From: a virus
Lineage: Duplodnaviria > Caudoviricetes
Strand: one strand, 5' to 3'
Length of the DNA: 64,000 bases
Virus record (IMG/VR): IMGVR_UViG_3300031998_000044
Span: 26,712-90,711 of that record
Made by a program: the position numbers and the translations under genes. How positions within the stretch are numbered: position 1 is the first letter of the stretch; each line of letters opens with the position of its first letter. Below, one piece after another: positions 5,792-55,936 of this stretch. The notes under the pieces are model-generated. The model did no database searches and was not told where the DNA came from. It saw nothing but the letters and a program-made list of their open reading frames with translations.

Positions 5792-5843
5792 CTTACGTTT
5801 TTTGTAAGTTATAGTTATTTCAGAAGAAATATGAATAATTTTG
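5792..5843 (+). promoter_or_regulatory. Palindrome-plus-(-7) promoter A
   Basis: CTTACG-TTTTT-TGTAAG (5792-5808), 27-nt spacer, TAATTTTG (5836-5843). Confidence 0.7.
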
Positions 5844-5863
5844 GAAAACTAAAATTTACAAAA

Positions 5864-6334
5864 ATGAGAATAGTAAATCAAAAATCAAACCACGATGCTT
5901 ATGTAGAAGCTGAAAAAACAGCATACGATACGTTTACAACTTGGTTAAAAGAGAATATCAACGAACAAGTGAAATCAAAATGTAAGATAATACAGTCTTG
6001 GCTACTCGAATTTTTCAAACTAAACAAAAAGCCTACTTTTAGCCAAGTTCAAACGTATTGCAATAATCTTAAATCACAATATCTTCCAAATTCATCGTAT
6101 GAAGATATGAATATCGTTATAACAAAAGTAAATTCTCTTGATAATGACAAAACGTTCTATTTCGATATTTTTATTGACTTTAACGGCATATATCAAAGGC
6201 AGTTGATACAAAGTAACTGTATGCCTAATAAAGACGGTAAACCGATTATTTTGGACATAGAAATTACTGACGATGAATTAGATGAACGTATCAAGCAACA
6301 AGCGATAATTGACGGTGAATTTGAAGAAATATAA
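5864..6334 (+). CDS. Hypothetical protein
   Basis: ORF track 5780-6334; start moved to ATG 5864 (MRIVNQK) because it lies downstream of promoter A. Confidence 0.6.
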   Translation: MRIVNQKSNHDAYVEAEKTAYDTFTTWLKENINEQVKSKCKIIQSWLLEFFKLNKKPTFSQVQTYCNNLKSQYLPNSSYEDMNIVITKVNSLDNDKTFYFDIFIDFNGIYQRQLIQSNCMPNKDGKPIILDIEITDDELDERIKQQAIIDGEFEEI

Positions 6335-6642
6335 TGAAGGATTACACACTTTATCTCAAATTAATATCACAAGAAATTGGTGAAGAAATCGTTCCCGAAT
6401 TCAAGTTCCATCCGACAAGAAAATGGCGGTTCGATTATGCAATTCCTTCAAGGAAAATTGCTATCGAAATCGAGGGTGGACTTTGGATTTCGGGCAGACA
6501 TAATCGCCCTTTTACAATGATAAAAGACTTTGAAAAGTACAACGAAGCCGCTAAACTTGGTTGGCGATTGTTAAAGTATACACCTCAACAGATTGCTAAT
6601 GTTAGCGAAATAAGCAAATTTTTAAAAGAAATGATAAAATAA
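6334..6642 (+). CDS. PD-(D/E)XK endonuclease (Vsr/DUF559-like phage nuclease)
   Basis: PEFKFHPTRKWRFDYA...IAIEIEGG...GRH...KYNEAAKLGWRLLKYT. Confidence 0.75.
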   Translation: MKDYTLYLKLISQEIGEEIVPEFKFHPTRKWRFDYAIPSRKIAIEIEGGLWISGRHNRPFTMIKDFEKYNEAAKLGWRLLKYTPQQIANVSEISKFLKEMIK

Positions 6643-6647
6643 ACACT

Positions 6648-7817
6648 ATGGAAAAGTTATATGTTTGTATGGATAAAAGTGGTAGTGTCCATATATCTAA
6701 TACTAAGCCAATTAAACCACAAAAAACAAAGAAAAATCCCGATGCAAATGACGAAATATTCATTCCATCTGATTACGGATATTCACAAAGCAGACAACCA
6801 AAATTTTTCATTGCATTATACGGTCAAATTCGACAAAAATTAATTGACCAAGGACTTACATTTGAGAATAGTCCAATGGAAGTTGAACTGACAATAAAAT
6901 AATAAATATGTATAAAGGAAAAATTACGTGCATCGGATGCGGAAAAACAGGCGAAGAAGCACCTCGTAAATCAAAAGATTGTTTGTGTGATGATTGCGAA
7001 AACTCTCTTAAAATTGGAAGAGCAATTGTCAAAGAGAGAAATCTTGAAAGCAAAAGTTACTGTCTTGATGAGTTTAAGATTGGAAGTTTTAAATGGAACA
7101 CCTACACAGATGATATAGAAAACGCATTGATTAACCTTTTGAACTCCTTCTCTCAGTTCAAAGAAACAAATAAAATTTGGGGATTCAGAGAATCCTTATA
7201 TTACAATAAATTACTTTCATCATATGGAGCATCACACGAGGTTATTCTACCAGTAGAAACATTCGAAGCTGCAAAAAGACTCTGTGAAACACTTAAAAAA
7301 GCCAATGACGAATTAAAAGAAAAACGTCAAACATACAAGGAAGAAGTTTTTAAAGAACTTATTGCAGAAAAGCATAAATTATATAAAGAAATTGCTGATG
7401 AAAAGAATAAAATCTACAACGATGGAGTTCATTATGGACGAAATTTGTTGGTCCAATTGAACAATGGAGAAATTGCCCCAAATGAGATATTGAAAGATGT
7501 TAAACCTTTTTAAAAAAGATTCTATATACCTCGATGATTACGCTGAGGATATGTTAAATAATAAAGAAACAAACAAAATATTAATTTACGTTAAATAATA
7601 GGAGATTAGTAAAATGGAAAAACACGACGTACCTACAAATATGATAATCAAAACCGATATTGGTGATATATTGGTACAAGAAGCAAAACCTAACGTACAC
7701 CGTTGCACAGACTGTGTTGGATTAAAAAATGCTCCAATATGTCATTTTTTAATCTGTCGAGCAGAAGAGAGGAAAGACGGCAAAAACGTAATTGTAATAC
7801 CTTATAAAGAAAAATAA
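6648..7817 (+). CDS. Hypothetical genes 6648-6902, 6908-7513 (N-terminal CxxC...CxxC zinc finger plus coiled coil), 7614-7817
   Basis: Contiguous ORFs; CIGCG and CDDC pairs in 6908-7513. Confidence 0.55.
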
Positions 7818-7818
7818 T

Positions 7819-8115
7819 ATGACAAACGAAAAATTAGTTTTAAGCATAGTGCCTGCCGACAACTTAACAGCGTACAATTGTGCGTTAGAAGTTGCAAGGA
7901 GAAAAGATGAGGAGTACAATATAAAGCCAATCTCCGAACTCGGTGGTTGGCACACAGAACCGCCGACAGAGGACGGCTGCTATCTCGCAGAAACATTCCG
8001 TATTCCATACAAGAATTGTCATTACATAGTCGCAGAGTACGACACAAACGCAAAATGTTGGTACGATGAAGCATACGAAAACGAAATTGAAATAAAAAGA
8101 TGGAAGAAAATCTAA
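7819..8115 (+). CDS. DUF551-like phage protein
   Basis: WHTEPPTEDGCYL...Y...W...IKRWKKI pattern. Confidence 0.5.
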   Translation: MTNEKLVLSIVPADNLTAYNCALEVARRKDEEYNIKPISELGGWHTEPPTEDGCYLAETFRIPYKNCHYIVAEYDTNAKCWYDEAYENEIEIKRWKKI

Positions 8116-8985
8116 CAATAGAACAAAAAGCCAACGCCCTGATTGGATGTGCCAAAGTCGGTGGTTGCAAAAGTCAAGATGTCAACTTCTGCAAAAAAGC
8201 ATACAAAGACGGCGGATATATGTGCAAAACCAAAAAGATGTTGCTTTTAATGGCTGACTTTGTTATCGACAAAGCCATTGATTGGCTGCGAGAAAACGCC
8301 ACCGACTACCTCGACAAGATTGAGGATTGTACTGGTGGTAACGAATGGGAATCTCAGACTTGGAGTTTCCCAGAGGAATTTTTCAGACGATTTAGAAACG
8401 AAATAAAAAATGGAAACAAAGAAAGAAACATCTCCTGAAACTGAATTATACATTTGGCAAGTAATCGGCGATAATCTCGGAATAAAAGAAGTCGGAGAGC
8501 AGATTACAAAAGGCGAGGAATACGCATTCAAGAATCCTATTGTCTTTAAAATTGCTGCTGAAATATGTAACTATATGAATGAGCAGTTAAACGAGAAAAT
8601 GAAGTTAATAAAGACTTTGACCGATGAAAACGAGAAAATAAAACAAGAACACAATAAATGGAAAAAGGAAGTAATTGATTGCACAGAATTAAATGAACTA
8701 TTAACAGCACAAGTAGTATGTAGAGACGAAGAAATCGAAAGATTAAGCAAACGTATTAAGGAGATATCAAAACAACTTTATTGCTCTGATAAAAATCAAG
8801 AAAAAGAACACGGAAAATTATTAAATCAAATTGCATTATTTAATCAGCAAGTTAAAAAACGTAAAAAAGCAGAAAATGAATTAAAAATAGCAAAAGAAGA
8901 AATAGCAAGATTAACAGAACGCATTAAGAATCTTGAAGCCGACCTCGAAGAAGGAGGTTTTAACGATGAAAGAAACTTTATTTAA
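8100..8985 (+). CDS. Two hypothetical genes (8100-8438; 8410-8985, long coiled coil)
   Basis: Overlapping co-oriented ORFs; heptad-rich sequence in the second. Confidence 0.55.
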
Positions 8986-9017
8986 CGAGAATTGTATGAA
9001 ACTTAAAACAGACGATA

Positions 9018-9221
9018 ATGCCAATAATGGTTAAATTTCTCATCATTTTATCAAGTATTATTTGTATCATCTTTGGAGTAATATGTATAATCGGAAGCCT
9101 ATTGTACATACTTAACAATCAGACGTACACATCATTATTTTTATTAATCGTAACATTTTTAGGCAGCGAATCCATTGACATAGGTTGTGAAACCATCAAA
9201 AAGATAACACGAAATCTATAA
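9018..9221 (+). CDS. Small two-helix membrane protein
   Basis: Two hydrophobic stretches; converges on and overlaps the integrase 3' end. Confidence 0.5.
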   Translation: MPIMVKFLIILSSIICIIFGVICIIGSLLYILNNQTYTSLFLLIVTFLGSESIDIGCETIKKITRNL

Positions 9222-10404
9222 CCTTCCTATTAGCAGAATCCACCTTATTATAATCAAACTTAATGTAAATATCTGTAACTGTATTGCCTTCGTGTCCAAG
9301 TGCGTGAGCAATGACATCACGGCTAATATCTAACTGTGAAGCGAGAGTAGCCCAAGTATGTCTTGCCCAATATGTACTTAGTTCAGGGAACAACGGAGAT
9401 ACAGTTTTCTTTCCACATTCGTCATATTGAACATCTCCGACACGCTTCAAGTTCTTATTAAATCGTTCCAAGAAGTCCTTGTAGTTGTGATAACCGTCAA
9501 GGATATTCAAAAGATAATCGACACCTTTATATATATTAAGAATATCCAACGCTTCGGGTTCAAGTTTAATTGAGTACAGACGTGATGTCTTTGCTCTTTT
9601 AAATTCCAATCTACCGTTAACAATATTGTCTTGCGTACAGTGAAGTAAATCAACCATATTGATACCTATAAGATAAAAATCAAGAATAAAGAGGTCTACA
9701 TATTTTTTAAGATAGTCCTCAACAGGATAGGTCATAAACATACGTAGCTCAATAACTGTTAACGAGCGTTTACGTGTCGGTATAGGTCGAATTTTAAATG
9801 TACGGAAAGGATAATGCGAAGTGATTTCGTTATCTATGGCATCATTAAAAACAGCACGAATATTACGTAAATGAACATTGCGACCGTTTTTAGAATTAGA
9901 GGTCAAGGCTAAGTGATTCTCGAAATCAGTAAGCCAACCTTTATTCAAATCTTCAAATCGCTTAAAATCAATATTTTTGTCGAAGTCGTGAATACGTTTT
10001 AATGTGAATAAGTAGATGTTTTTTGTAGTAACGTTTAATTTTCGATTAGCAAATTTTAAAAAATAATTACAAAACAAATTTTCATCAGTAGGCTTATTAT
10101 CAGACAATTGCAAATCTATTGCTGCCTTTACTTCATTAACATCGTTAAAATTTATATTTTTATTTACAAACGAAAATATTATTTTATCAATTTTATTTTT
10201 AAACTCCAAGATAAAGGACATTAATGTTTCTTTATTAGGCACACGAAGAATTTTTTGTGATACGTTGTCCCAACAGTTAGGTTGCAGTTTTATTTTTAGT
10301 GGAAAGTAGACGGCTTTTTGCTTGTAGGTAACAGCCAATTTTAATGATGCAGGTGAGCCGTCCTTCGTGTGCCTTTTATCAAGGTAAAATTTTGTCGTTA
10401 TCAT
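9196..10404 (-). CDS. int: Tyrosine integrase (Bacteroidota type: arm-binding, SAM-like and catalytic domains)
   Basis: N-terminal MITTKFYLDKR arm-binding domain; RNIRAVFNDAI; FYLIGINMVDL; FKRAKT; YWARHTWATLA; ALGH; C-terminal DIY tyrosine. Start placed at ATG 10404 rather than TTG 10434. Confidence 0.9.
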   Translation of the reverse strand: MITTKFYLDKRHTKDGSPASLKLAVTYKQKAVYFPLKIKLQPNCWDNVSQKILRVPNKETLMSFILEFKNKIDKIIFSFVNKNINFNDVNEVKAAIDLQLSDNKPTDENLFCNYFLKFANRKLNVTTKNIYLFTLKRIHDFDKNIDFKRFEDLNKGWLTDFENHLALTSNSKNGRNVHLRNIRAVFNDAIDNEITSHYPFRTFKIRPIPTRKRSLTVIELRMFMTYPVEDYLKKYVDLFILDFYLIGINMVDLLHCTQDNIVNGRLEFKRAKTSRLYSIKLEPEALDILNIYKGVDYLLNILDGYHNYKDFLERFNKNLKRVGDVQYDECGKKTVSPLFPELSTYWARHTWATLASQLDISRDVIAHALGHEGNTVTDIYIKFDYNKVDSANRKVIDFVLSF

Positions 10405-10516
10405 AACTTCAAATTTTAAACAAATTTTTTGCAAGTATTCTTGCTAATTTAATTTTTAATTTATAATTTAGTGCTTTGAATTACGATGATAACAGGTTGA
10501 TAATGTGCCATAAAAA

Positions 10517-10562
10517 GTCGGGGCAGAGAGATTCGAACTCTCGACCTTCTGCTCCCAAAGCA
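10517..10562 (-). mobile_element. attP core: 3' half of tRNA-Pro(TGG)
   Basis: Reverse complement TGC-TTTGGGA-GCAGAAGGTCGAGAGTTCGAATCTCTCTGCCCCGAC contains the anticodon loop (TGG), T-arm GTTCGAATC and 3' acceptor strand; the 5' half is absent; ~110 bp from the integrase start. Confidence 0.85.
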
Positions 10563-10633
10563 ATATGTTCAATCCTGTGTTTCATCAACTTACAAATGCA
10601 TTGCAAGTAAATTGCAAGTTAATCGCAAATTTC

Positions 10634-10650
10634 CTTACAAATTTCGTAAG
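10634..10650. promoter_or_regulatory. Copy of the CTTACA-N5-TGTAAG palindrome upstream of dnaB
   Basis: CTTACA-AATTT-CGTAAG; only 13 nt from a -7-like TTAATTTG (10664-10671), unlike the 27-nt spacing elsewhere. Confidence 0.55.
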
Positions 10651-10698
10651 GCAAAAATGAGCATTAATTTGCAATAAACAAAAAAATAAACACAAAAA

Positions 10699-12027
10699 AT
10701 GGAAGAAAAGAAACTACCTACAAGCGTAGAAACTGAAAAACTTATTCTCGGTGCAATTTTAATAGAGAAAGATGCAATTGAGAATGTTGTAGACATACTT
10801 AAACCTGAAATGTTCTACGATACAGCAAATAAAAGTATCTACGAAGCTTGTCTAAAACTCTACAATGGCAACAAACCAATCGACATTTATACTGTTAGCG
10901 AACAACTTGCAAAAGATAACAAGTTAGAAGAAGTCGGTGGAAGTTACTATGTTGCTACACTAACTGAGAATGTAGGCTCTGCAAGTCATATCGAATATCA
11001 TTCTAAAATTGTCGTAGAAAAGTATATCAGACGTAAATTGATTAAAGAATCGTATGAGATAGGACAAGATGCATATAACGCAGCAGTTCCATTGGAAGAA
11101 ATTGTCGAACGTCAAACAAAAATGATTGATACACTTGGTCAACATTTTGCAAATGAATCGGCAGAAACAATAGAAACTATATTCCCGAAGGTATTAAAGG
11201 AAATCGAACAAGCATCACAGCAAAAGTCAGGAATTAGCGGAATAAGCAGTGGTTTTACTCAAATTGATAGCCTTACACACGGTTTTCAACATACAGATAT
11301 GATAGTAGTAGGTGCAAGACCATCTATGGGTAAGACTGCATTTGCTTTATCGCTTATGATTCGAATGGCTATGAAAGGTGTAAGATGCTTGTTATTTAGC
11401 CTTGAAATGTCGAAAGTAGCGATTACCAAACGTATCACGTCTATGATAAGCAATATTACAGGTGATAAAATTCTTAGCGGAAGATTATCCGTAGACGATT
11501 GGAATGCACTCGAAGGAGCAGCACCAACAATTATGGGATTGCCTATAATTATAGACGATGAAGGTGGAATCAGCACACTGCAACTCAAAACTAAGTGCCG
11601 ACAGTATATGAAGAAGTATGGTTTTGATATTATAATGTTAGACTATCTTCAACTAATGAAAGATACAGAAACAAAATCAGACAAGAAAAATGATGAAGTT
11701 TCGGAGATAAGTCGCAAAATCAAAAACATAGCAAAGGAACTCAATGTACCATTCATTGTACTAAGTCAGTTGAACAGAAACTTGGAAAGCAGACCCGACA
11801 AAACTCCTATCAATGCAGATTTAAGAGATAGTGGCTCTATCGAACAAGATGCAGATGTAATAATGATGCTATATCGTCCAGAAGTTTATGGAATAGAACT
11901 TATGCCTAATGGATTAATTACCGACAAATTAGCACAAGTTATTATTACTAAACAAAGGAATGGCTCATTAGGAACAATTGACCTTCAATTCGACAAAGAG
12001 AATACCCGATGGACGGAGATGGAATAG
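10699..12027 (+). CDS. dnaB: Replicative DNA helicase DnaB
   Basis: GARPSMGKT, FSLEMS, LDYLQL, LSQLNR, DLRDSGSIEQDAD, KQRNG; N-terminal DnaB domain present; no intein. Confidence 0.95.
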   Translation: MEEKKLPTSVETEKLILGAILIEKDAIENVVDILKPEMFYDTANKSIYEACLKLYNGNKPIDIYTVSEQLAKDNKLEEVGGSYYVATLTENVGSASHIEYHSKIVVEKYIRRKLIKESYEIGQDAYNAAVPLEEIVERQTKMIDTLGQHFANESAETIETIFPKVLKEIEQASQQKSGISGISSGFTQIDSLTHGFQHTDMIVVGARPSMGKTAFALSLMIRMAMKGVRCLLFSLEMSKVAITKRITSMISNITGDKILSGRLSVDDWNALEGAAPTIMGLPIIIDDEGGISTLQLKTKCRQYMKKYGFDIIMLDYLQLMKDTETKSDKKNDEVSEISRKIKNIAKELNVPFIVLSQLNRNLESRPDKTPINADLRDSGSIEQDADVIMMLYRPEVYGIELMPNGLITDKLAQVIITKQRNGSLGTIDLQFDKENTRWTEME

Positions 12028-12852: not shown

Positions 12853-12905
12853 ACGAAAAATGCAATACAAAAGAATTAAAATACGCAAAAAATTATAAAT
12901 AAATT

Positions 12906-13250: not shown

Positions 13251-13260
13251 TAATAACTCT

Positions 13261-13686: not shown

Positions 13687-13687
13687 T

Positions 13688-18287: not shown

Positions 18288-18298
18288 TAAACAACAAA

Positions 18299-21810: not shown

Positions 21811-22127
21811 AAAAAACAATTAAAACAGCAATAATCATCATCGTTTTAACCGTATTGGCAATAATTGCATACAATGCTTATAAGTCAATATCAGAAACGA
21901 CTGTTACAAAAACCGAGTTCGACAAAGCAAATGCCATTCTAAATCATCGTATTGAGAATATATTGCAAAATCAAGACAGCATAAAACGAGAACTTGCAAA
22001 ACTCGGCTATAAAGTAGATACCGTTAATATACGGTTAGATACAATTCAAGCAGTTGACATATTAATTTATCAATCGATGCAAGAAAACTCAGGCAAAACT
22101 ATTTGGGATTGGCTTAAATTTGAATGA
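21807..22127 (+). CDS. Membrane-anchored coiled-coil protein
   Basis: MKKTIKTAIIIIVLTVLAIIAYNAY transmembrane helix followed by heptads. Confidence 0.55.
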   Translation: MKKTIKTAIIIIVLTVLAIIAYNAYKSISETTVTKTEFDKANAILNHRIENILQNQDSIKRELAKLGYKVDTVNIRLDTIQAVDILIYQSMQENSGKTIWDWLKFE

Positions 22128-23778: not shown

Positions 23779-23999
23779 AAATAAATCTCCTATTTTAGCA
23801 CCTTTTCGCAACTTTCTGCGGAGAGGTGCGTTTTTATAGGAATAACAAATTAACTAAGTAGTATATGACACGCAAAGAAGAACTTGAAAAAAACTCGATA
23901 GTCTGTTAGAAGAATTTAAGGACATCGATTACGAAGAAGTGGTTGAAACACTCGAATACTATGCTTTTATCTACCAATCAAAAATAAACCGAGAATAAT

Positions 24000-24593
24000 A
24001 TGGTTACACTAAATGACATAAAGAACGCAAATAATATTTGTTCTGTGTTTAAACGTCACAGATATAACAAGGGAATATTACTTGATGCTTTCTTGTTTGA
24101 TACACTTGAAGATTTCGACATAAATTGTCATTATAAATACGATTTCGATGTTTATTTGACAAAGTTTGGAATAAATTTGCAAAGACCGTATGTTTGGGAA
24201 TATTACCAACAACAAGAATTAATATTATCTCTACTTTTTGAAAAACAAGTTGAAAAGGTTGTTGCTATATTGCACAATAGCGATTTAAACCGTAAAAATG
24301 CAGTAATGTTTATCATTGACGGAAAGCAACGATTATTAACAATTTATAAATTTATACACAATGAGTTCCCTATAAATCTTAATGGGAAACAAGTATACTT
24401 CAAAGATTTTGATAAGGATGCTTACTACTTTTTCCGTAGTCGAGTAAATTATATTCTTGCTGATGTATATTACTCTTATGATAATGAACCGATTTCTGAC
24501 GAGGAAAAAATAATCATATTCAATTTTTATAACTTCTCAGGCACTCCACAGACTGAAGAACATAAGAAAAAACTTGAAGCATTATTACAATAA
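24000..24593 (+). CDS. Stand-alone DUF262 (ParB/Srx-fold, GmrS/SspE-like) protein
   Basis: LQRPYVW, IIDGKQRLLTI and FNFYNFSGTP match the QRxYxW, DGQQR and FxxxN motifs. Confidence 0.75.
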   Translation: MVTLNDIKNANNICSVFKRHRYNKGILLDAFLFDTLEDFDINCHYKYDFDVYLTKFGINLQRPYVWEYYQQQELILSLLFEKQVEKVVAILHNSDLNRKNAVMFIIDGKQRLLTIYKFIHNEFPINLNGKQVYFKDFDKDAYYFFRSRVNYILADVYYSYDNEPISDEEKIIIFNFYNFSGTPQTEEHKKKLEALLQ

Positions 24594-24626: not shown

Positions 24627-25244
24627 ATGAAGAAACTATTATTTATCTTGCTCGCAACGATATGGTGTATCGGAGCAAACGGACAAAATACAAATAATCA
24701 AACACAAAAATATTATGAAGATATTTGCACTCCAATGATTGAAATCAAAAACATTCATCCAGAATCAATAACCAAAGAACAAATAATAGAATTAAATATT
24801 TTTGTTGATAAATATAATAAAATAAATGAAAATAAAATTATTGACCATATTGAGATTGAACCAAATATTGAACCATTTAGAGTTATTTGTCTAAATAAAG
24901 AAAATTCGGTTATTGGTCATATATGTTTAGCGTCAACAGGAAAATATAATACAACATATAAGATATTAAAAAAAGGTAGAATTTATTGCAAAAGGAATTT
25001 AGAAAAAAATGAATATTACTTAGGCAATGAAATTCCTAATCAATATGAACATGATAAAAGGTTTAATATTATTGGATTATTTTTTATGCCATATATGAAT
25101 AGCGAATATCCTTATTATGGTATAGGGTTATTTGGATATGATTTGAATCGTTTAGAAATAGATTATGAGAATAAAATTGTAGATTTATTAATGGAAAAAC
25201 ATATATATTATACTACGATAATACAACAAGCCTTAAACAATTAA
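24627..25244 (+). CDS. Exported protein with signal peptide, very AT-rich
   Basis: MKKLLFILLATIWCIGANG signal peptide; followed by its own terminator. Confidence 0.6.
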   Translation: MKKLLFILLATIWCIGANGQNTNNQTQKYYEDICTPMIEIKNIHPESITKEQIIELNIFVDKYNKINENKIIDHIEIEPNIEPFRVICLNKENSVIGHICLASTGKYNTTYKILKKGRIYCKRNLEKNEYYLGNEIPNQYEHDKRFNIIGLFFMPYMNSEYPYYGIGLFGYDLNRLEIDYENKIVDLLMEKHIYYTTIIQQALNN

Positions 25245-25300: not shown

Positions 25301-25352
25301 CTTACATATAATGTAAGTGTTTGTTTTTGTATTTAGTTTATTTCTTTATTTG
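25301..25352 (+). promoter_or_regulatory. Palindrome-plus-(-7) promoter B
   Basis: CTTACA-TATAA-TGTAAG (25301-25317), 27-nt spacer, TTTATTTG (25345-25352); extra palindrome GAAGTTA-T-TAACTTC at 25354-25368. Confidence 0.7.
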
Positions 25353-25383: not shown

Positions 25384-26808
25384 ATGAATATAAATACAAA
25401 TGACTATGTAGTAGTAAATGGAAAAAAATATTACGCAGAAGGTGGTATAAAATATTTTGATAATGGAGGACCAACTAAAAAAGAACTTAAACAATTTGTT
25501 GATTGGAATTCCAATCGTATGAATAAAAAATCATTAAGAGGACCAACTTCATGGCGTTCAGGGGATGAAAAAGACGAAGATTTTGCAAAGCAATTTATTC
25601 AGAATATGCAAAACTATGTAAATCCAAATGATAAGAATAAATTGACATTAACTCAAGCAATGCATATTCAAGATTTATTAGATTCAGTACCAAAATATGT
25701 AAAAGACGAAGATTTATACGATGTATATAATAGTGAAGGTAAATTTGCTGGATTTGAAGATAGTCCTGAACTTATGAATTTACGTTGGGCAGATAAATAT
25801 AATAATATTGATGATATTATTAGTAATCGTAGTCTAATGTTTAAAAATGTATATAATTCACCTGAATTTCAAAATAAAGTAAAAGAATTTCTTTCTACAA
25901 AACGTGGTAATGGTTCATATATTGAATATAAACATCCAATAACAGGTGATGATATGTATTATAGGTTTTATATTGGTAAAGATGGGGCAGGATTTGTACC
26001 TGATTTTAATGCAAAAAGTAAAGGATTTGAGCCTATTGTTACACTTAGAGGAAATGGAATAGAAAATACAGAAGAATATGAAATTGAACCTGAAAAAAGA
26101 GAAATTTATAATGGTGAAGAAATCGTAATTCCTGCAAAAAAAGGTAGAAGATTTATTATTAACCAAAATGAAAAAAATAGAATAGACAACGGTTATAGTT
26201 ATGGAAATTTTTATGAAGGTTCTGAATCTAATCCTGTAAATCTTGGAACAGGAGAAAAAATAGAGTATTATAACAATTTAAAAAATTTAAATGCCAACGA
26301 CCAATATAAACAAATAAAGGAAAACCATGCATACGGTGGTCCTACTACTCGTCTTTTCGCAAGCGGCGGTGATATGGGTGCTATTCCTATGGGTGAACAG
26401 CCTGACTACAATATGGTAGGCGCAGGTGGAAGCCACGAAATGAATCCGCAAGGCGGTGTGCCATACGGAATGAACACAGACGGAAGCCAAAATATGGTAG
26501 AACAAGGCGAAGTTTCTGTTGGAAACAACGTATTTAGTGACCGCACAGCAATATCGCCCGAACTTTGTCAACAACTTGGATTACCCGAAGGTACATCACA
26601 CGCACAGGCAATGCAGCAAATTGAAGCATTGTATGAGCAAGGACAAATTGGCGAACAAGAATACCAAGAAATCTCCCAAATTCTTTTCCAAGACCAAGAA
26701 GCGCAAAAACAAGGTGGTGGTATGCCGCAACCTCAAAACGAAGGTATTCAGCCTGAAATGGTAGCACCCGAAGGTTATGCTTGGGGTGGTCGTAGAAGAT
26801 GTAGATAA
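25384..26808 (+). CDS. crAss-type putative virion cargo protein with repeated xxxGG motifs
   Basis: YAEGG, FDNGG, HAYGG, FASGG, YAWGG; C-terminal GGSHEMNPQGGVPYG...NMVEQGEV...VFSDR segment recalled from crAss-like virion proteins. Confidence 0.55.
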   Translation: MNINTNDYVVVNGKKYYAEGGIKYFDNGGPTKKELKQFVDWNSNRMNKKSLRGPTSWRSGDEKDEDFAKQFIQNMQNYVNPNDKNKLTLTQAMHIQDLLDSVPKYVKDEDLYDVYNSEGKFAGFEDSPELMNLRWADKYNNIDDIISNRSLMFKNVYNSPEFQNKVKEFLSTKRGNGSYIEYKHPITGDDMYYRFYIGKDGAGFVPDFNAKSKGFEPIVTLRGNGIENTEEYEIEPEKREIYNGEEIVIPAKKGRRFIINQNEKNRIDNGYSYGNFYEGSESNPVNLGTGEKIEYYNNLKNLNANDQYKQIKENHAYGGPTTRLFASGGDMGAIPMGEQPDYNMVGAGGSHEMNPQGGVPYGMNTDGSQNMVEQGEVSVGNNVFSDRTAISPELCQQLGLPEGTSHAQAMQQIEALYEQGQIGEQEYQEISQILFQDQEAQKQGGGMPQPQNEGIQPEMVAPEGYAWGGRRRCR

Positions 26809-26831: not shown

Positions 26832-26863
26832 GCCGTTAGGTACTTCACCTGACGGCTTTTTTT
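26832..26863 (+). terminator. Intrinsic terminator
   Basis: GCCGTTAGGT-ACTTC-ACCTGACGGC followed by T7. Confidence 0.8.
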
Positions 26864-26919
26864 ATTACAAAAATAGTAAGGATAATTGTTGGTTATAAAT
26901 TACCATAATTTTATATTTG
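26864..26919 (+). promoter_or_regulatory. Degenerate palindrome plus sigma-A-like promoter
   Basis: ATTACA-AAAAT-AGTAAG (26864-26880); GTTG, 20-nt spacer, TATATTTG (26912-26919). Confidence 0.45.
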
Positions 26920-26955
26920 TATCTGTTTTTGAAATTTTTATATTATTATTCCTCA

Positions 26956-26986
26956 GCCGTCGGTAGTTTTTATCGACGGCATTTTT
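26956..26986 (+). terminator. Intrinsic terminator
   Basis: GCCGTCG...CGACGGC followed by ATTTTT. Confidence 0.75.
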
Positions 26987-26990
26987 ATTA

Positions 26991-27042
26991 CTTACACATT
27001 TTGTAAGGTATTAAAAATCAACGGTAATATATAGTATTTTTG
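26991..27042 (+). promoter_or_regulatory. Palindrome-plus-(-7) promoter C
   Basis: CTTACA-CATTT-TGTAAG (26991-27007), 27-nt spacer, TATTTTTG (27035-27042); heads the Bro-N/DUF3310/ring/muzzle unit. Confidence 0.75.
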
Positions 27043-27067: not shown

Positions 27068-27317
27068 ATGGGAAATAATATAAGAATTTTTAAAAATGAA
27101 ACATTCGGAGAAGTTAGAGTAACCGAATTGAATGGAGAGCCAATGTTTTGTTTGGCAGATGTAGCAAAAGCGTTAGAATATGCAAACCCTGCTAAGGCTG
27201 TTATAGACCATTGTAAAGGGGTTACCATTTTAGAAACCCCCACTACAGGTGGTATACAGCATATTAAATAAGGCAATATTATCATTATTAATTAAATCAA
27301 AGATTAATCCTTTTTAA
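27068..27317 (+). pseudogene. Truncated Bro-N (antirepressor-type) gene
   Basis: IFKNETFGEVRV...GEPMFCLADVAKALEYANPAKAVIDHCKGV...GGIQ ends at TAA 27269-27271; LLIKSK continues in another frame. Confidence 0.7.
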
Positions 27318-27319: not shown

Positions 27320-27513
27320 ATGGATAACACAAAACCAAAATATTATCAAAAAGGCAAAATTGAAGTTTGGGATTTTATTAAAGACCAAAACTTAGATTTT
27401 TTTGCAGGAAATGTAATTAAATATGTATGCCGTACAAGGACAAAAACGGCTTAGAAGATTTAAAAAAGGCACAAGTATATCTTGAAAAACTGATTAAAAA
27501 TATGCAAGAATGA
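27320..27513 (+). pseudogene. Frameshifted DUF3310 (SaV-like) gene
   Basis: KPKYYQKGKIEVWDFI...GNVIKYVCR, then a 1-nt deletion, then (Y)KDKNGLEDLKKAQVYLEKLI; paralogue of 35243-35479. Confidence 0.75.
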
Positions 27514-28226
27514 GTACATTCAGAGAAATTCTATATATGATTCAAGATGAGTGTAAATACGATACTGATGATTCGTATTACACACATGAACATATATTAT
27601 GGCTAATGCAACGTTATCGTTCACTACTTTTTACACAAAAATACGGTGGTGTTAACGGCAACCTAAAAAAGAAAATTCCTGATAGCAATCAACAGGAGAT
27701 ATGTATAGAATTAATGAAGGTTTATGGCAATAATAACGCCCGCTGTGACAGTGGACTATATCTTACGTCTACTAAGCCAATACCGAGCATAATGCCGTAT
27801 ACAAAACCAAAACTATACACAGTTGATATGTACTCAACAATTAGCCACATTGACTTTGTAGGCTACGAGCAAATGAAATATAGTGGCACAAATAAATATT
27901 TCAAGAATATCATTTATGGTAGTATTGCACCAAATAAACATTTATTTTTAAAGGCGCAGAATCCCACTTTTTCTAACCTTGGAAAGATTAAAATGTCTGC
28001 TATATTCGAAGATATTACCGAAGCAGCTAAACTCTCTTGTGACGAAAATTGCGATACTTTGGATAATTCATTTCCTCTCGAAGATGCACTTATTCCTGTA
28101 TTGGTGCAATCAGTAGTCAAAGAACTGACTGAAAGATTAGTTGTACCTGAAGATAAGTCAAACAACGCAGACGACAACCAAAACGAAAATATGTACGCTA
28201 ATGGCAACGCAAGACCTACAGAATAA
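27510..28226 (+). CDS. crAss tail ring/adaptor protein
   Basis: MSTFREILYMI...ILWLMQRYRSLL...QEICIELMKV...YGSIAPNKHLFL...FPLEDALIP...VKEL pattern of crAss ring proteins (recalled). Confidence 0.65.
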   Translation: MSTFREILYMIQDECKYDTDDSYYTHEHILWLMQRYRSLLFTQKYGGVNGNLKKKIPDSNQQEICIELMKVYGNNNARCDSGLYLTSTKPIPSIMPYTKPKLYTVDMYSTISHIDFVGYEQMKYSGTNKYFKNIIYGSIAPNKHLFLKAQNPTFSNLGKIKMSAIFEDITEAAKLSCDENCDTLDNSFPLEDALIPVLVQSVVKELTERLVVPEDKSNNADDNQNENMYANGNARPTE

Positions 28227-31200
28227 TGCACAACAACAAGGTAATGTGCAATCTTTTAAGATTCATGGAATGAAGCATGATTTATCAGAATCTGCTTTTG
28301 AAAATGAGTTTGCATTTGAGAATATGAATATGCGAATTAATATCGTAGATTCAGATAATACTCTATTGAATCTTACAAATGAAAGAGGAACTAAAGCACT
28401 CAGTTTAACTTTGCTCGGCAGACCTATTGGTTGTAAAAAATATGCTAATGACAAGATATTATTAATTACAACGCAAGACGGTTCTTCATCAACAAAGGAC
28501 CACATTTATAATATAAAAATCAATAGTAGCGATGTTATTAGTGCTGACGATTTAACAAATGGAAAGAACTATGGCTTCTCATCAAACTATCCTATAGAGA
28601 TTGAACACTATCACGATGGCGAAAAAGATTTCTTCTATCTCGCTGATGGTTTAAATAATTTTAAGACGTTTTGGATAGAAAATAATACACTAAAACCGAA
28701 TGTAAACAACATTGACTACAATAAAGAAATAAGTGGCACAGATTCAATTTTATACAGAATAATAAAGGCACAAAATGCTGAATTTTATTCTGGTGTAATT
28801 GTTTATTGTTTTTGCTATGTTACAGAACAAGGTCATAAAACAGGTATAATTGATATGACACCTGTAATAAAATTGACTAACCATGGTTTATCACATGGTT
28901 TAGAGCCAAACAAAAAAACAAACGTAGCAATTAATATCAAATGCCTAAAATTAAGTTCTAATTTTAAAAATGTAGAAATATATTCATTGTACCGCAGTTC
29001 CCTTGATGGAGATATGATAGTTAGGAAGGTAACATCAATTAACATCAAAAATTCATCTATAAAAGCACAAACAATTATTGATGATTTTAATGGCGAGAGA
29101 ATTTTAACTCCTACGGAAATACAAAATTATTATGCAGACGCTAACTATGCTATACAAAATAGGAATATAGATTTTGTCGATGAAAATAAAGGAGATATAA
29201 TCTCTTACCAGGAACTTTTAACTCGTGTTAATTCAGTACTTATACCAAGTACATTGTGTTCTAAAAATAATACTTTGTTTCTTGGTAATATAAAAACAAA
29301 TAATTTCACTGCACTTAAATCTTTAATTTCGATTAGCGGTGGCAAGACAGTAACAGATAAAGGTTCATATAATGAGAACTATTTTTATAGTAAGAACAAA
29401 TATTATGCAGGTGTACAACTACAAGACAAATACGGCAACTGGACACCTGTTATTGGAGTAAGTCAAATAACATACAAACAAAACGTTGTACTTAGTTCTA
29501 CGTTTGTAAATGCTGCAATTAATCAAGGATATATAGCAGCAAGAGGAATGATGTTAGATGATAAGAGAGTTCGTAACTCTATTGCTCAAGGAATAGGTCT
29601 GAAAACAATCAAAATAGAAGAAGGCAAATATGGTGTAGATATATATGCAGCATACTCACATACTCTCCAAAATGCAATTTTTGAAGGATTTGATGCTGAA
29701 AATCGACCTAATCTTGCTCCAGCAGAAGACACGCCATATTATCCTCCATATTTGGATGCTAAAGGTTATTCTATTGGATATACTTCATTTTATGATTTAT
29801 ATTCTCCAGATGTCGAATTTGATGAAAATTTCTATTTGGATAGCAGTGTAACACATAAAATTGAATATGCTTCCTGTGTTCCAACAGAATATTACCCAGA
29901 GATTGATGTAACACTAAGTAGTAACAATGGTGTTTTATTCAATAATTCTGACGAAATAGGTAAAGCTATATACGATACTGATTTGAATAAATTTTATTGG
30001 ATTGATTGTATTGCAAACTATCAGAACGCATTACAATTACAATTCGGAGGAGATAGCCTAAGCCAAACAAATATTTCATTGACACCTTTATATTTTCTTG
30101 ATTCTTATGATTTATACGAAGAACCAACAAAATTTAAAATATATGTTTGGCAGCCATCTGGAAGTTTAAATGATTCAGACGGCAGAGTTTCCGTTCTAAA
30201 TACTAAAAAAATTGGTTGGTATTCAGTTTGGAGCGCAGGTGCGTCAGGCAGTGGTACATATTCAACCACACTAAATAAACAAATTTATACATTTGATGGA
30301 ACTAATTCGATTATACCATTAAATTATACTACTGATTTAGGAAGTGAAACAAAAACTTATTGTGGCATAGTAAATCTAAAACTTTTCCAAAAAACATGGA
30401 CTGTTGGAACTGTAACAAATGATGATTCGAGTTCTGGATATTTTGACAGTTACAATGAACAAACAATTTTTTATGATTTTGCTCGTTCATTCATGCGTTC
30501 TACATCATTTGTAGGTCAGCCTATAGAATTTCAATATCCACAAAGAGGTGATGGACAAGCTGATTATGAATATTATAAATTCTTAATAAACTATACTGTA
30601 CACCAAAAAATACTTGATGATAATATAACAGTTAATGCTAATGCAAAAGTTTATAAATGGGATGATACATCAATACATATACATTCATATAGTAATATAA
30701 ATGGTTGGCATGACAAAGATTTTATAAACCATAGTGGTGATGGATTACCTATACTTGTATCTAACAATTTCTCAAGGAAGAATCAAATAACAGTAACATA
30801 TAGGACAAATAAACATCTTATTGCAGAACTTAATGGAAACAATGTTAAGATAAAATTTTTAATCTCTGATAATGAATCGTTAAATAACGTAGATATTGAA
30901 AGAGGTAGATGGATTGTAGCATCGCCAAAAGACATATTAACACAAAATCAAGGATTAACACTTAATATGAATCTCGATGATGTGTATGTATGGAATTCAG
31001 GAGAAAGACGTTATCAATCTCTGATTTCTGAGCCATATTCACAATATGATACGAATCAAGTTTGTTATCTTGCATCAGTAGAAGGAGTAAGCTCTTATAT
31101 CAATCCTTTTTGTAGGTGTGATAAATTTGTTAACACTACAAGCCCGATGAATATGTCTAATGAGTTCTTTAATAAGATGAATATGGTCTACAATCAGAAG

Positions 31201-32343
31201 AACAACTTTTTCATATACACAGGCATTACTGCAGATACTGTAACAGATGATACGTTGGATAACACTATTTTATATTCTGATTTAAAAGTGTCTAATGAGA
31301 AAGAAGATTCATTTATAAATCTTCCAACAACAAATTTCTTTACAATAGACAGTTCCATAACAAAAATTAACAAGCTTATAACGTATAACGATAAAATACT
31401 ATGTTTTAGCGATAATGCTATATCACAGATACTTTATAACGAAAATGTTGTAATTAATACTGAATCTGTACAATCTCTTGGATTAGCTTCTACCGATAAA
31501 GTTACAGGTTCGCAATTAATAACCAACACTTACGGTTGTTTGAACAAATGGAGTATAGGTATATTCAATAATGACTTGTACTTCATCGATGATTTGAACA
31601 ATAAATTAATGGTATATAATGGCGAATTTTTGGCTTTGAACGAGAAATTAGGTATAGAAACACTAAACAATAAGCTGATTAAAAATAAAGTGTGGAATCC
31701 AAATTCTTGGTACAATACTAAGTTTAATATTGATAAATATGCCAAAGACGTACATTACACAACAAGTGATTTTGACATAGCATTTAATAGCGAATTAGGG
31801 TCTTTCACAAGTATATACAGTTACGAAAACATATCGTTTATTGAAACAATAGGCAGTCATACAATAGCATTTAAATACAATAGTGGTAATACAAACGCAG
31901 TATATTTGCGTGAAGGAAACTATAATCAGTTCTTCGGAACTTATAAACCATTCTATACGACTGTCATTGTCAACCAAAACAGCATAATCAATAAGACGTT
32001 ATCGTATATTGAATATAGTTCAGAAGCATATTCAATGTCGAATAATACATTAGTTCCTCAACATAATTATACATTTAGCCATATCGAATTTTGGAACGAC
32101 TATCAAGAATCAAAAGATAGCCACAAAGTAAAGATTGATTACAAAATGTACGGTCAATCATTACTTAAACGAAAATTCAGAATATGGAGAATAAATCGTT
32201 TTAGAGATTATACACGATTGCCTGGACGTAATTACGATATGTTATCTAACACTTGGCACTATATGAAGTTGCTAACTGATGGTACTGCGTTAGAACAGAA
32301 TTACAAACTTACATTCCATTGGTTGAACGTATACTACCGATAA
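28201..32343 (+). CDS. crAss tail stabilisation / muzzle protein
   Basis: GMKHDLSESAFENEFAFENMNMRI N-terminus, YGCLNKWSI and C-terminal KRKFRIWR motifs; probable start MATQDL at 28201. Confidence 0.7.
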   Translation: MATQDLQNNAQQQGNVQSFKIHGMKHDLSESAFENEFAFENMNMRINIVDSDNTLLNLTNERGTKALSLTLLGRPIGCKKYANDKILLITTQDGSSSTKDHIYNIKINSSDVISADDLTNGKNYGFSSNYPIEIEHYHDGEKDFFYLADGLNNFKTFWIENNTLKPNVNNIDYNKEISGTDSILYRIIKAQNAEFYSGVIVYCFCYVTEQGHKTGIIDMTPVIKLTNHGLSHGLEPNKKTNVAINIKCLKLSSNFKNVEIYSLYRSSLDGDMIVRKVTSINIKNSSIKAQTIIDDFNGERILTPTEIQNYYADANYAIQNRNIDFVDENKGDIISYQELLTRVNSVLIPSTLCSKNNTLFLGNIKTNNFTALKSLISISGGKTVTDKGSYNENYFYSKNKYYAGVQLQDKYGNWTPVIGVSQITYKQNVVLSSTFVNAAINQGYIAARGMMLDDKRVRNSIAQGIGLKTIKIEEGKYGVDIYAAYSHTLQNAIFEGFDAENRPNLAPAEDTPYYPPYLDAKGYSIGYTSFYDLYSPDVEFDENFYLDSSVTHKIEYASCVPTEYYPEIDVTLSSNNGVLFNNSDEIGKAIYDTDLNKFYWIDCIANYQNALQLQFGGDSLSQTNISLTPLYFLDSYDLYEEPTKFKIYVWQPSGSLNDSDGRVSVLNTKKIGWYSVWSAGASGSGTYSTTLNKQIYTFDGTNSIIPLNYTTDLGSETKTYCGIVNLKLFQKTWTVGTVTNDDSSSGYFDSYNEQTIFYDFARSFMRSTSFVGQPIEFQYPQRGDGQADYEYYKFLINYTVHQKILDDNITVNANAKVYKWDDTSIHIHSYSNINGWHDKDFINHSGDGLPILVSNNFSRKNQITVTYRTNKHLIAELNGNNVKIKFLISDNESLNNVDIERGRWIVASPKDILTQNQGLTLNMNLDDVYVWNSGERRYQSLISEPYSQYDTNQVCYLASVEGVSSYINPFCRCDKFVNTTSPMNMSNEFFNKMNMVYNQKNNFFIYTGITADTVTDDTLDNTILYSDLKVSNEKEDSFINLPTTNFFTIDSSITKINKLITYNDKILCFSDNAISQILYNENVVINTESVQSLGLASTDKVTGSQLITNTYGCLNKWSIGIFNNDLYFIDDLNNKLMVYNGEFLALNEKLGIETLNNKLIKNKVWNPNSWYNTKFNIDKYAKDVHYTTSDFDIAFNSELGSFTSIYSYENISFIETIGSHTIAFKYNSGNTNAVYLREGNYNQFFGTYKPFYTTVIVNQNSIINKTLSYIEYSSEAYSMSNNTLVPQHNYTFSHIEFWNDYQESKDSHKVKIDYKMYGQSLLKRKFRIWRINRFRDYTRLPGRNYDMLSNTWHYMKLLTDGTALEQNYKLTFHWLNVYYR

Positions 32344-39571: not shown

Positions 39572-39623
39572 CAAAAAAATACTAAGACATTATAAAAAGC
39601 AATAGAATTATATTGAATGTAAG
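39572..39623 (-). promoter_or_regulatory. Palindrome-plus-(-7) promoter D (scaffold-MCP operon)
   Basis: - strand CTTACA-TTCAA-TATAAT (39623-39607), 27-nt spacer, TTTTTTTG (39579-39572). Confidence 0.6.
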
Positions 39624-44178: not shown

Positions 44179-44195
44179 TTTGTATAGTTATTAGA

Positions 44196-51713: not shown

Positions 51714-51715
51714 AA

Positions 51716-54079: not shown

Positions 54080-54987
54080 TTATTTATTATATTATTGATT
54101 TTATCTGCTATTATTTGTATGTCGCCATGTGGTTTGCCTGTTATTCCTTTTAATCTCAAATCTATAAAATGCTCCCATTCTTCTATAGTGGCTGTATAAA
54201 TTGCTCTTGTATGAGTATCAAGTGGAAGAATGCCACGAGCCTCATCAATATGAAATCCCATTCCGAATTCATTATCAGAACAGTTTCTTAAATCTTCTGG
54301 TATGTTTTTAATTGCTGTCATATAAAGCATCTCTGCATTTTTCATAGCACCTTTCCACCATTCTTTATAAACATCATTTTTTGTATTATACCAATAAGGC
54401 TTATTAAATGCAACTTCACCACCGAACTTATCTTTAGAGAAATTACAGTAACGAGTACTCTGTTCACATATGTAGAAGTTATCGTGATGACGGTTCATTT
54501 CACGAGTACAACCAATTGAAGTGTCTACTATGAAGGACCTGAAAAAACTTCTTCTTTCTTGATATTTATTTATAAAACGAAGCGTTTCATCAATAGTTTT
54601 AGTTATTGAAGTATTTTCATTCTTTTTGTTGTTATACTTGATTATTGATTCAATCAAAATTCTACCATTTATTGCATAATAACTATTACCAAGAGTTCCT
54701 TTTTGTATTGAATACTTATTTGTAACACACAAAATACAAATCATCTTCGGTTTGTAATAGTCAGGAATCAAGTGGTCATTTTGTAATTTATCAATATCGA
54801 GATAAATAACAGCGTGTTCAAACGGACTGAAATGCTTACTTTCAATAAGCCTTTCTACTAATGCTTTATCTTCAGTTGTCTTGTCACTTGCATAACAAAT
54901 TCTTGCAGCACGTGCTACTGCCTTATAGAAATTATCAACTCCTTCAAATTCTGTTACTTCTGTTACGTTTGGTTCAATGATTTTCAT
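54076..54987 (-). CDS. thyX: Flavin-dependent thymidylate synthase
   Basis: AARICY, HFSPFEH, TREMNRHH...EQSTRY and ARGILPL motifs. Confidence 0.85.
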   Translation of the reverse strand: MKIIEPNVTEVTEFEGVDNFYKAVARAARICYASDKTTEDKALVERLIESKHFSPFEHAVIYLDIDKLQNDHLIPDYYKPKMICILCVTNKYSIQKGTLGNSYYAINGRILIESIIKYNNKKNENTSITKTIDETLRFINKYQERRSFFRSFIVDTSIGCTREMNRHHDNFYICEQSTRYCNFSKDKFGGEVAFNKPYWYNTKNDVYKEWWKGAMKNAEMLYMTAIKNIPEDLRNCSDNEFGMGFHIDEARGILPLDTHTRAIYTATIEEWEHFIDLRLKGITGKPHGDIQIIADKINNIINK

Positions 54988-54992
54988 AGTTA

Positions 54993-55869
54993 CTAGTTTT
55001 TATAATTATCAACTTTAAATAAACCTTTAATGACTTCTTCTGTCGAAGGATTACATCCTAATTCAGAAATTTCGCTAAGTAACCATTGTTTGTCCTCTTC
55101 CTTAACAGCACCTATAACAGTAGATACATACCAACAACATACATCATCTCCAAAATGGTCTTTTTCATTAAATTCAGTACCTTCTACAACAGTTCTTTTT
55201 TCCTCATCAAAAAATGATAAATCATCACTATACTCAGTTGTCATTGGTATCTTTAAGTATACTTTAAAATTATCAATGATATTCTTATACCAATTAGCAC
55301 CTGCTTGAAATGCTTGGTACATAGCAACTTGTATATCAGTTTGCTTTGAAGTATTATTACTTACATATTCTTGTGCTGCTTTATTTAATTCTTGTACCAT
55401 AACTAATTTCCTCCTTTGTAAGTTTTATCTATAAATTTCTTCTACAGGAAAACATTTAAATGTCTGCATTTCACCATCAACTTCTTCAGTAACTTCGTGA
55501 GGTTCTCCTGTTATTTTAAGAGTAAAATCTGAAGATTCTGCATTGATGTTTTCAAATGGATTATCTAGAAATTCCAATAATGTAGATTCAACTCCTTCAA
55601 AGTTCATAGTTTTTTATTTTAGTTATAAATTCATTTATGTCTTTGCAGTATACAATATCTTTAACATCTGCTTGAAATCTAGCTAATGCTTGTTCTACTG
55701 TTAAATTACCCTCTGTTTCATCCGAGTAACCTACACCATGAACACCATTAATACCCATAAAATCAAGCCATACTGAATTTTTATATTCAGCGCAAGAACA
55801 AACATTGATTCCTGCTTGTCTGATTTTCTCCCTAATTTCTGGATTATTTTGCTTTAAAATAAATTCCAT
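54993..55869 (-). CDS. Three small hypothetical genes (54993-55400, 55425-55607, 55597-55869)
   Basis: Co-oriented ORFs between terL and thyX; the third probably starts at MEFILK. Confidence 0.55.
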
Positions 55870-55884
55870 AATATTAATTTTAGA

Positions 55885-55936
55885 CAAAAATAAGGGATAA
55901 TGATATTGTTTCATTATCCCTTAATAAAATTGTAAG
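55885..55936 (-). promoter_or_regulatory. Palindrome-plus-(-7) promoter E (thyX-portal-RNAP-cargo operon)
   Basis: - strand CTTACA-ATTTT-ATTAAG (55936-55920), 27-nt spacer, TATTTTTG (55892-55885). Confidence 0.7.
55894..55920 (-). terminator. Perfect 10-bp hairpin inside promoter E (terL terminator or operator)
   Basis: GGGATAATGA-N7-TCATTATCCC followed on the - strand by TTATTTTTG. Confidence 0.55.

Follow-up and report, generated by a model that had tools for sequence, protein, structure and literature searches.

A 17-bp dyad fixed 27 nt upstream of the -7 box heads virion-gene units of a crAss-like phage and is a likely activator site of its late promoters

The control of virion genes in crAss-like phages is the subject here, and the starting point is a stretch of 64,000 nucleotides (called the window here), which covers positions 26712-90711 of the virus record IMGVR_UViG_3300031998_000044 in IMG/VR. 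The complete viral record is 90,711 bp long with direct terminal repeats and is labelled G000. A first-pass annotation, made from the letters of the window, had described a palindrome placed exactly 27 nt upstream of a Bacteroidota-type -7 box at five intergenic sites (A to E). The element was followed here through the whole genome and its relatives. It is a promoter-linked, non-random cis element with rigid spacing, which heads virion (late-type) units. We consider, with a rough probability of 0.62, that it is an activator site for host RNA polymerase (RNAP) at late promoters which have no -33 box. Positions are those of the window unless they are given as genome positions.

The five sites have the same build of a 17-mer, a spacer of 27 nt and an 8-mer ending in TTTG, and both the coordinates and this geometry were confirmed. 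The palindrome CTTACA-N5-TGTAAG, under which the element was first described, is strict in two of the five sites only: the exact copies are B (25301) and C (26991), for 0.01 expected, whereas A has one mismatch, and the promoter-proximal halves of D and E contain two apiece. Because the proximal halves of D and E are degenerate and only B and C are perfect, the conserved element is (C/G)TTACA-N7-TAA(G/T) and not a perfect 6+6 palindrome. The list of five was also incomplete, as a copy with one mismatch at 10634-10650 (site X) and a copy with two mismatches at 26864-26880 (site Y) had been overlooked. The class had been called phage-wide, which needs a qualification: there are seven full sites genome-wide, two of them (F and G) outside the window, but the block containing TerL is driven by a separate promoter of the tripartite type, which is described below.

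The frequency and the fixed spacing of the motif were then compared with other spacings. CTTAC-N43-TTTG occurs in 7 copies in the 90,711-bp genome, which is the maximum over 301 spacings (mean 1.43, standard deviation 1.21), and in the non-coding DNA (7.7 kb, or 8.5% of the genome by a crude call of open reading frames, ORFs) TTTG stands at exactly +43 for 6 of the 20 CTTAC pentamers, against a mean of 0.22 at other spacings. In a scan with a position weight matrix (PWM) the seven sites score 22.7-30.8 bits and all other positions at most 17.5. The earlier remark that no near-perfect copy lies inside coding sequence was borne out, since the copies with at most one mismatch are all intergenic (4/4). 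With at most two mismatches, 8/10 fall in non-coding DNA by the same crude call; site G, one of the remaining two, is also intergenic under a likelier start codon, and only the copy at 21868 is truly coding. The flanks and the spacers differ among the sites, for which reason an origin from a duplicated cassette was rejected. A sigma-70-type promoter scan (92 found, 96.5 expected) was uninformative for a Bacteroidota host.

The seven full sites stand before separate transcription units (Table 1), and five of these units are virion modules, namely cargo 1; ring 2 and muzzle; scaffold and capsid; thyX, portal and virion RNAP; and cargo 2 with a giant protein. The assignment of B to E to cargo, tail ring/muzzle, scaffold-capsid and thyX-portal-RNAP units was thereby upheld. 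Site A had been placed at the head of an endonuclease cluster, and a faint HNH match is the one family match found in its genes. The Crass_capsid domain is present in the major capsid protein of G000, which shares 47-50% identity with its counterparts in crAss001, DAC15, IAS virus and cr85_1 (Steigviridae). By Pfam and tblastn the crAss virion set includes a P22-like portal, the muzzle, ring proteins 1-4, tail hub A and B, cargo 1 and 2, TerL and a 2505-aa protein whose DFDVD motif is that of the crAss virion RNA polymerase. The genome also has a replication kit with RecT, DnaB and a DUF3127 protein among its members, and a Bacteroidota-type tyrosine integrase.

Table 1. Dyad copies, the tripartite-type promoter, candidate regulator genes and the integrase gene of G000 (window positions unless marked genome)
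Feature	Position	Strand	Sequence and remarks	-7 box	Unit or gene
Site A	5792-5808	+	CTTACGTTTTTTGTAAG; 1 mismatch; PWM 28.5	TAATTTTG 5836-5843	genes 5831-9221
Site X	10634-10650	+	CTTACAAATTTCGTAAG; other register, 1 mismatch; 13 nt before -7-like box	TTAATTTG 10664-10671	dnaB
Site B	25301-25317	+	CTTACATATAATGTAAG; perfect; PWM 27.9	TTTATTTG 25345-25352	cargo protein 1 (crAss_CARG1), 25384-26808
Site Y	26864-26880	+	ATTACAAAAATAGTAAG; degenerate, 2 mismatches; 31-nt spacer	TATATTTG 26912-26919	
Site C	26991-27007	+	CTTACACATTTTGTAAG; perfect; PWM 30.8	TATTTTTG 27035-27042	Bro-N fragment ORF (27068-27271), tail ring protein 2 (27510-28226), muzzle protein (28201-32343)
Site D	39607-39623	-	CTTACATTCAATATAAT; proximal half degenerate	TTTTTTTG 39572-39579	scaffold-like gene, major capsid gene, downstream head and ring genes
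Site E	55920-55936	-	CTTACAATTTTATTAAG; 2 mismatches	TATTTTTG 55885-55892	three small ORFs, thyX, portal gene, 2505-aa DFDVD virion RNA polymerase, 1514-aa protein
Site F	genome 16213	+	outside window		eight-gene block of unknown function
Site G	genome 10627	-	outside window		446-aa protein, cargo 2, ~3000-aa giant ORF
Extra dyad copy	genome 24490		47 nt downstream of a -7 box		RecT (early) operon, preceded by that -7 box
Tripartite-type promoter	61874-61905	-	no dyad; A-tract, ATTTGG (-33), 20 nt; conserved in contig L223	TATATTTG	block upstream of TerL
Zinc-ribbon protein, 63 aa, Cys-rich	61644-61835	-			crAss001 gp11 homologue; first gene after the tripartite-type promoter
Protein of 105 aa	61321-61638	-			unknown function; same block; conserved in contigs L220 and L223
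gp13-like protein, 136 aa	60918-61328	-			30% identity over 105 aa to crAss001 gp13, BLASTP E 3e-14
HU/IHF-like protein, 168 aa	60415-60921	-			24% identity to crAss001 gp42 (HU/IHF-like), pairwise E 1e-4 (weak)
Integrase	9196-10404	-			Arm-DNA-bind_5, Phage_int_SAM_5, weak Phage_integrase

The conservation of the element was studied in relatives. No near relative was found among GenBank phages (megablast of 12 kb) or in IMG/VR (single-protein scan), and metagenome contigs gave capsid proteins 56-77% identical to that of G000. The architecture recurs at orthologous positions in nine related metagenome contigs while the flanking DNA diverges, and in total 20 sites are available from 10 genomes. 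Upstream of the scaffold-like gene, G000 and five contigs (L006, L010, L215, L217 and L218) share [CG]TTACA-N7-nTAA[GT], exactly 27 nt and T[AT]nnTTTG; the spacer length of site D is thus kept in 5/6 relatives with unrelated spacer sequences, and the sixth, L007, has a degenerate copy at 26 nt. The architecture is also found before the cargo 1 gene (crAss_CARG1, the orthologue of site B) and a KilA-N/ANT gene in L006, and before a 1541-aa virion protein in L010. After the model was fixed, three contigs picked by TerL identity alone (L222, L223 and L224; 89, 79 and 75%) were fetched, and the dyad, the 27 nt and the box were present directly after TerL, at the position of site E, in 3/3 of them, with two further sites before thyX and before a ring gene. 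In L222 the element reads CTTATA...TATAAG, a symmetric change in both half-sites.

Outside this clade the element was not met with. It is absent from about 2.3 Mb of loci of crAss relatives with at most 51% capsid identity, PWM hits of at least 22 bits are lacking in a 950-kb subset of non-clade crAss loci, and scans with the capsid profile (IMG/VR, JGI metagenomes, GTDB genomes) gave relatives of at most 51% identity and three short fragments, none with the motif. The 26 single IMG/VR matches to the perfect palindrome followed by N27 and TNNNTTTG were judged to be chance, as nearly all are coding-like. Inside the clade the order of the virion modules differs strongly among L222, L223, L224 and the window (for example thyX lies on either side of TerL, ring 3/4 stand immediately upstream of TerL in L224, and ring 2 follows the portal gene in L223). 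A dyad promoter of its own accompanies each virion module through these extensive rearrangements, which may explain how the modules are shuffled without loss of coordinated expression.

The dyad promoters were compared with two known kinds. The canonical Bacteroidota sigma-A promoter has TTTG at -33 and TAnnTTTG at -7, the 8-mer being centred on -7 (PMC7366714). The 8-mer T[AT]nnTTTG is shared by all the dyad sites, 7/7 in G000 and 13/13 in the relatives (once as GATTTTTG, once as TTTTTTTG), at a normal 15-45 nt before the start codon. The dyad promoters differ in carrying an extra conserved 17-bp dyad which abuts the -33 position and in having no -33 TTTG, expected 19-21 nt before the -7 element and looked for in the first 14 nt of the spacer, at 19/20 sites; the -33 position had been called degenerate except in B, and B is indeed the single site with TTTG in the whole clade.

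The second kind is the "extended tripartite" motif of crAss-like phages, which was reported upstream of the phi14:2 middle genes g070, g075, g108 and g110 as well as in 13 further beta-crAss genomes (beta-crassvirinae genus VI) and IAS virus (Drobysheva et al., 10.1101/2020.03.07.982082). In that work the E. coli sigma-70 holoenzyme alone transcribed such promoters, and both middle and late phi14:2 genes were transcribed by the rifampicin-sensitive host RNAP (10.1101/2020.03.07.982082). Read from the record, the four phi14:2 promoters have an A-tract, a TTGCAT/TTTGGA block at -33/-35, TCAAATATT and TAnnTTTG, with no dyad, and the promoters of crAss001 resemble this layout. Both kinds share the phage order, the -7-type box, the kinds of genes downstream (portal, virion RNAP, structural) and the presumed use of host RNAP, and genes for cargo, ring/muzzle, capsid, portal/RNAP and cargo 2 follow sites B-E and G as structural homologues follow the tripartite promoters. 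The tripartite promoters have a -33 block and no dyad at -47, whereas the dyad promoters have the dyad and no -33 block. Identity with the published motif was therefore rejected, as its A-tract and its -33 block about 20 nt before the -7 box are absent from the dyad promoters. G000 contains both classes, one promoter of tripartite type and seven with the dyad. In crAss001 (L005) the promoters of the portal gene (gp20) and gp27, at about 11566-11618 and 25017-25069, have ATAAAYAAATCACTTAT, exactly 27 nt and a -7 box. This pair has the 17 + 27 + 8 layout with everted half-sites (ATAA...TTAT), and since there are two copies only in the first 50 kb, chance or a local duplication is possible.

On these data the following mechanism is proposed. 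A dimeric protein, probably a product of the phage itself, would bind to the 17-bp (C/G)TTACA-N7-TAA(G/T). If the 8-mer is centred on -7, the dyad would be centred near -47 and span about -55 to -39, right next to the stretch in which sigma region 4 would contact a -33 box. The bound protein may recruit or stabilise the host sigma-A RNAP at promoters which have a good -7 box and no -33 box. A strong distal half-site, a weak proximal one and an invariant 27-nt spacer suggest that binding is cooperative with RNAP through a fixed protein-protein contact. The first-pass annotation had proposed a dimeric activator working with host RNAP at late genes, and this is still the best fit to the fixed register, the missing -33 box, the unequal half-sites and the terminator-like hairpins which lie directly upstream of dyads C and Y; the late units would be separately controlled. 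That the protein activates, that it does so late and where transcription starts are points which we infer.

The same protein may also turn down replication genes, as is suggested by the dyads over the dnaB promoter (site X) and downstream of the -7 box of the early operon (genome 24490). Site X sits where the -33 box would be, which suggests a repressing geometry; the DnaB protein behind it was identified by Pfam. Single proteins which both activate late promoters and repress early ones are known from phi29 (p4) and lambda (CI).

The activator would be made from the block behind the dyad-less tripartite-type promoter. This promoter heads a block syntenic with gp11-gp17 of crAss001, upstream of TerL, in which homologues of gp11, gp15 and gp16 are also present. 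It had been stated earlier that no candidate regulator is recognisable in the window, and this did not stand, as three are found here: a gp13-like protein with a predicted winged-helix fold, a zinc ribbon like gp11 and an HU/IHF-like protein. The gp13-like protein is the best candidate for the dyad-binding protein, on suggestive grounds of modelled fold and synteny. The crAss001 record labels gp13 a "putative VpsT-like transcriptional regulator", and the family comprises 85 representative clusters, with orthologues in the clade members L220, L007 and L223. An AlphaFold2 model from the family alignment reached a mean predicted confidence (pLDDT) of 92.6, and its best structural matches (Foldseek E at least 0.25) are DNA-binding domains of winged-helix type, namely those of the RepA_N initiator, PerR, MntR, LexA, MarR/MepR and the CRP/FNR C-terminal domain. 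A profile search against PDB sequences gave FocB and ZitR at E 0.02-0.1. The model supports a generic winged helix and not specifically a helix-turn-helix of LuxR/VpsT type. The G000 protein is orthologous to crAss001 gp13 and lies in the same syntenic block, and it differs in the putative recognition helix, the last before the wing, which is the best-conserved part in the dyad clade (YFDVLLNKLRNH there, HFQVIMGKLRKN in crAss001). A word-indexed homologue search with the gp13-like protein returned only itself. The gp11-like zinc ribbon, whose crAss001 label is "putative transcription factor, zinc-finger fold", is an alternative candidate binder by its sequence, and the HU/IHF-like protein is a possible architectural cofactor.

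Several points weigh against an activator site of late promoters. The phage is uncultured and known here from sequence alone. No function is assigned to the genes behind A and F, and A is situated in the replication region, so the late or virion character of the class is not uniform. The 20 sites agree in T2, T3, A4, T14, A15 and A16 (C5 in 17/20) and always have a spacer of 27 nt, but part of this positional invariance stems from the regular-expression and PWM search; the tests at orthologous positions and in the TerL-picked contigs are unaffected by this. Positions 5 and 13 are complementary in only 9/20 sites, and with a proximal half so poorly conserved a symmetric dimer is something that we infer. 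A weak -33 box is common in Bacteroidota promoters generally (PMC7366714), and for this reason its absence is no proof of activator dependence. As for the candidate binder, gp13-like proteins are also present in crAss001, which is without the dyad, the structural matches of the fold have no more than moderate scores (Z 5-6.6), and neither Pfam nor PHROGs assigns the protein to a DNA-binding family.

Other explanations were weighed against the same evidence. The dyad may be the operator of a prophage or temporal repressor, which holds the virion operons off until release. A lysogenic state is plausible, given a tRNA-derived att-like core and an integrase whose arm-binding and SAM-like domains are of Bacteroidota type, and two dyads, X in the -33 region of dnaB and the copy at genome 24490, 47 nt past its -7 box, are in classical repressing positions. 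However, 27 nt separate the upstream dyad from the -7 box at 20/20 in-register sites, so that the dyad does not overlap the core. Such a strictly fixed upstream register is typical of activators which contact RNAP, whereas operators tolerate variable placement over the core, and prophage repressors normally govern a few early promoters and not every virion operon. We regard a repressor as unlikely.

It is also conceivable that a transcription factor of the host (e.g. a global winged-helix or CRP/FNR-type protein) reads the dyad and couples the making of virions to the physiology of the host. Pfam and PHROGs find no classical regulator in about 60 small phage proteins, nor in about 70 G000 proteins altogether, and the phage proteins named above as binders are candidates only. 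Against this, the motif occurs in a narrow phage clade only and is missing in crAss relatives of at most 51% capsid identity, which also have Bacteroidota-type hosts, and the shift of both half-sites in L222 is easier to understand if the reader protein travels with the phage. A host factor is accordingly given little credence.

The dyad could further be an extended promoter element read by an RNAP-associated factor, by sigma appropriation of the MotA/AsiA type or by a monomer on the distal CTTACA. The distal half is far better conserved than the proximal half, a lone half-site ATTACA stands in the correct register at the ring-1 promoter (genome 10633-10649), and the gp13-like model weakly matches the N-terminal domain of T4 MotA and a sigma-appropriation complex (Z 5.7-5.8). 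Yet T14, A15 and A16 of the proximal half do not vary in 20/20 sites, pairs 2-4 are always symmetric, and the model matches many unrelated winged-helix proteins at least as well as MotA, which leaves this explanation improbable. A hairpin acting in read-through RNA (processing, termination, stability) was rejected as hardly credible, because, although A, B, C and X can form hairpins of 6-7 bp (-4 to -6 kcal/mol), D and E do not fold (0 kcal/mol) and the element must then act as DNA, F and several orthologues have no complementarity at pairs 5 and 6, no compensatory stem changes are seen across relatives, and a fixed register to a DNA promoter box is meaningless for RNA.

An activator site for host RNAP has well-known counterparts. 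The late promoters of P2, 186 and P4 are served by the zinc-finger activators Ogr, B and Delta through a partial dyad TGT-N12-ACA centred near -55, and Mu uses C at its late promoters and Mor at its middle promoter. The layout of activator-dependent late promoters is found at 7 sites in G000 and 20 in 10 genomes, with a spacer of 27 nt and the -33 box absent. Shared with P2 Ogr and Mu C are the same upstream dyad at a fixed distance before several late or virion operons with a poor -35/-33 core, and the combination of host RNAP with a small phage activator made earlier, both of which are presumed for G000. The differences lie in the sigma type (Bacteroidota sigma-A, -7 TAnnTTTG), in the sequence of the dyad, in its position at about -47, and in the candidate binder, which is predicted to be a winged-helix protein and shows no detectable relation to either Ogr or C. 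A phage late promoter with an upstream dyad for a small phage activator is thus a familiar design, and, going by the literature that can be searched, this case of it is new among Crassvirales and Bacteroidota phages. A description of a late-promoter dyad in crAss-like phages was not found in the literature, the coverage of which is incomplete, so this is weak evidence of novelty. The one experimental study reports host-RNAP dependence and a sigma-A-type tripartite motif, with no regulator (10.1101/2020.03.07.982082).

The finding makes late regulation in these phages directly testable, as it supplies a sharply delimited cis element conserved in 20 instances, a geometry that is rigid and a short list of trans candidates in one gene block. 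If the activator is confirmed, it may provide an orthogonal expression switch for Bacteroidota. In a bolder form, one winged-helix protein of the gp13 family would be the master switch from middle to late, activating every virion operon from -47 and repressing replication promoters, and the design of 17-mer and 27 nt with lineage-specific half-sites may be general in Steigviridae-like phages. We hold this form to be rather doubtful; if true, late gene expression in Crassvirales would have its first regulatory logic, and a portable, orthogonal activator/promoter pair would be at hand for the engineering of Bacteroides.

Some individual sites have features of their own. Site Y is flanked by terminator-like hairpins at 26832-26856 and 26956-26980, and its membership in the class is doubtful. 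The unit (26832-26985) would give a transcript of about 60 nt ending in the second hairpin, possibly a small RNA. The first ORF behind site C (27068-27271) encodes a 67-aa Bro-N or anti-repressor fragment (Pfam Bro-N 8e-08; PHROG Ant 4e-17). In L006 a full-length KilA-N/ANT gene lies behind the equivalent dyad promoter, and the G000 ORF seems to be the remnant of a gene of this type. The 27-nt spacer of site E (55893-55919, minus strand) forms an inverted repeat, GGGATAATG-N9-CATTATCCC, and the T-rich -7 box comes next, so that a terminator-like hairpin of the TerL unit is contained in the promoter that follows. L222 (GGGTTAAG...CTTTAACCC) and L223 have an equivalent repeat, GGG...CCC with other inner bases, and L224 has none. 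Beside site G, a divergent promoter at genome 10633-10684, 16 kb before the window, serves ring protein 1, tail hub A and B and a 1199-aa protein. It has the distal half-site (ATTACA) only, in the 27-nt register to TATTTTTG, and the dyad of site G lies back-to-back with it, 6 bp away.

The giant ORF behind site G (about 3000 aa) wraps the record ends, running from genome 7191 down to 1 and then from window position 64000 down to 62179 on the minus strand, with no stop in frame across the first 7.1 kb of the genome. Recoding in the ORF-poor part at genome 1-7100 was rejected, as this one minus-strand ORF spans the record ends. Its counterpart in L223 has 3357 aa with an ART-PolyVal domain.

The integrase gene is adjoined at about 10530-10600 by a sequence like the 3' half of a tRNA (GGTCGAGAGTTCGAATCTCTC...). 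ARAGORN calls no tRNA there, so it is a fragment, and its place beside the integrase gene is consistent with an attP core. The phage looks temperate, which is unusual for a crAss-like phage. A 197-aa protein at 24000-24593 (plus strand), two genes upstream of the first plus-strand dyad promoter, has a GmrSD_N/ParB-like nuclease N-terminal domain (E 2.6e-11). Inside the plus-strand early region, a canonical minus-strand promoter, TTTG-N20-TTAATTTG, lies in the 23798-23853 region with its final G at 23846 and faces a hairpin with a 13-bp stem at 23798-23829; it may give rise to an antisense or small RNA.

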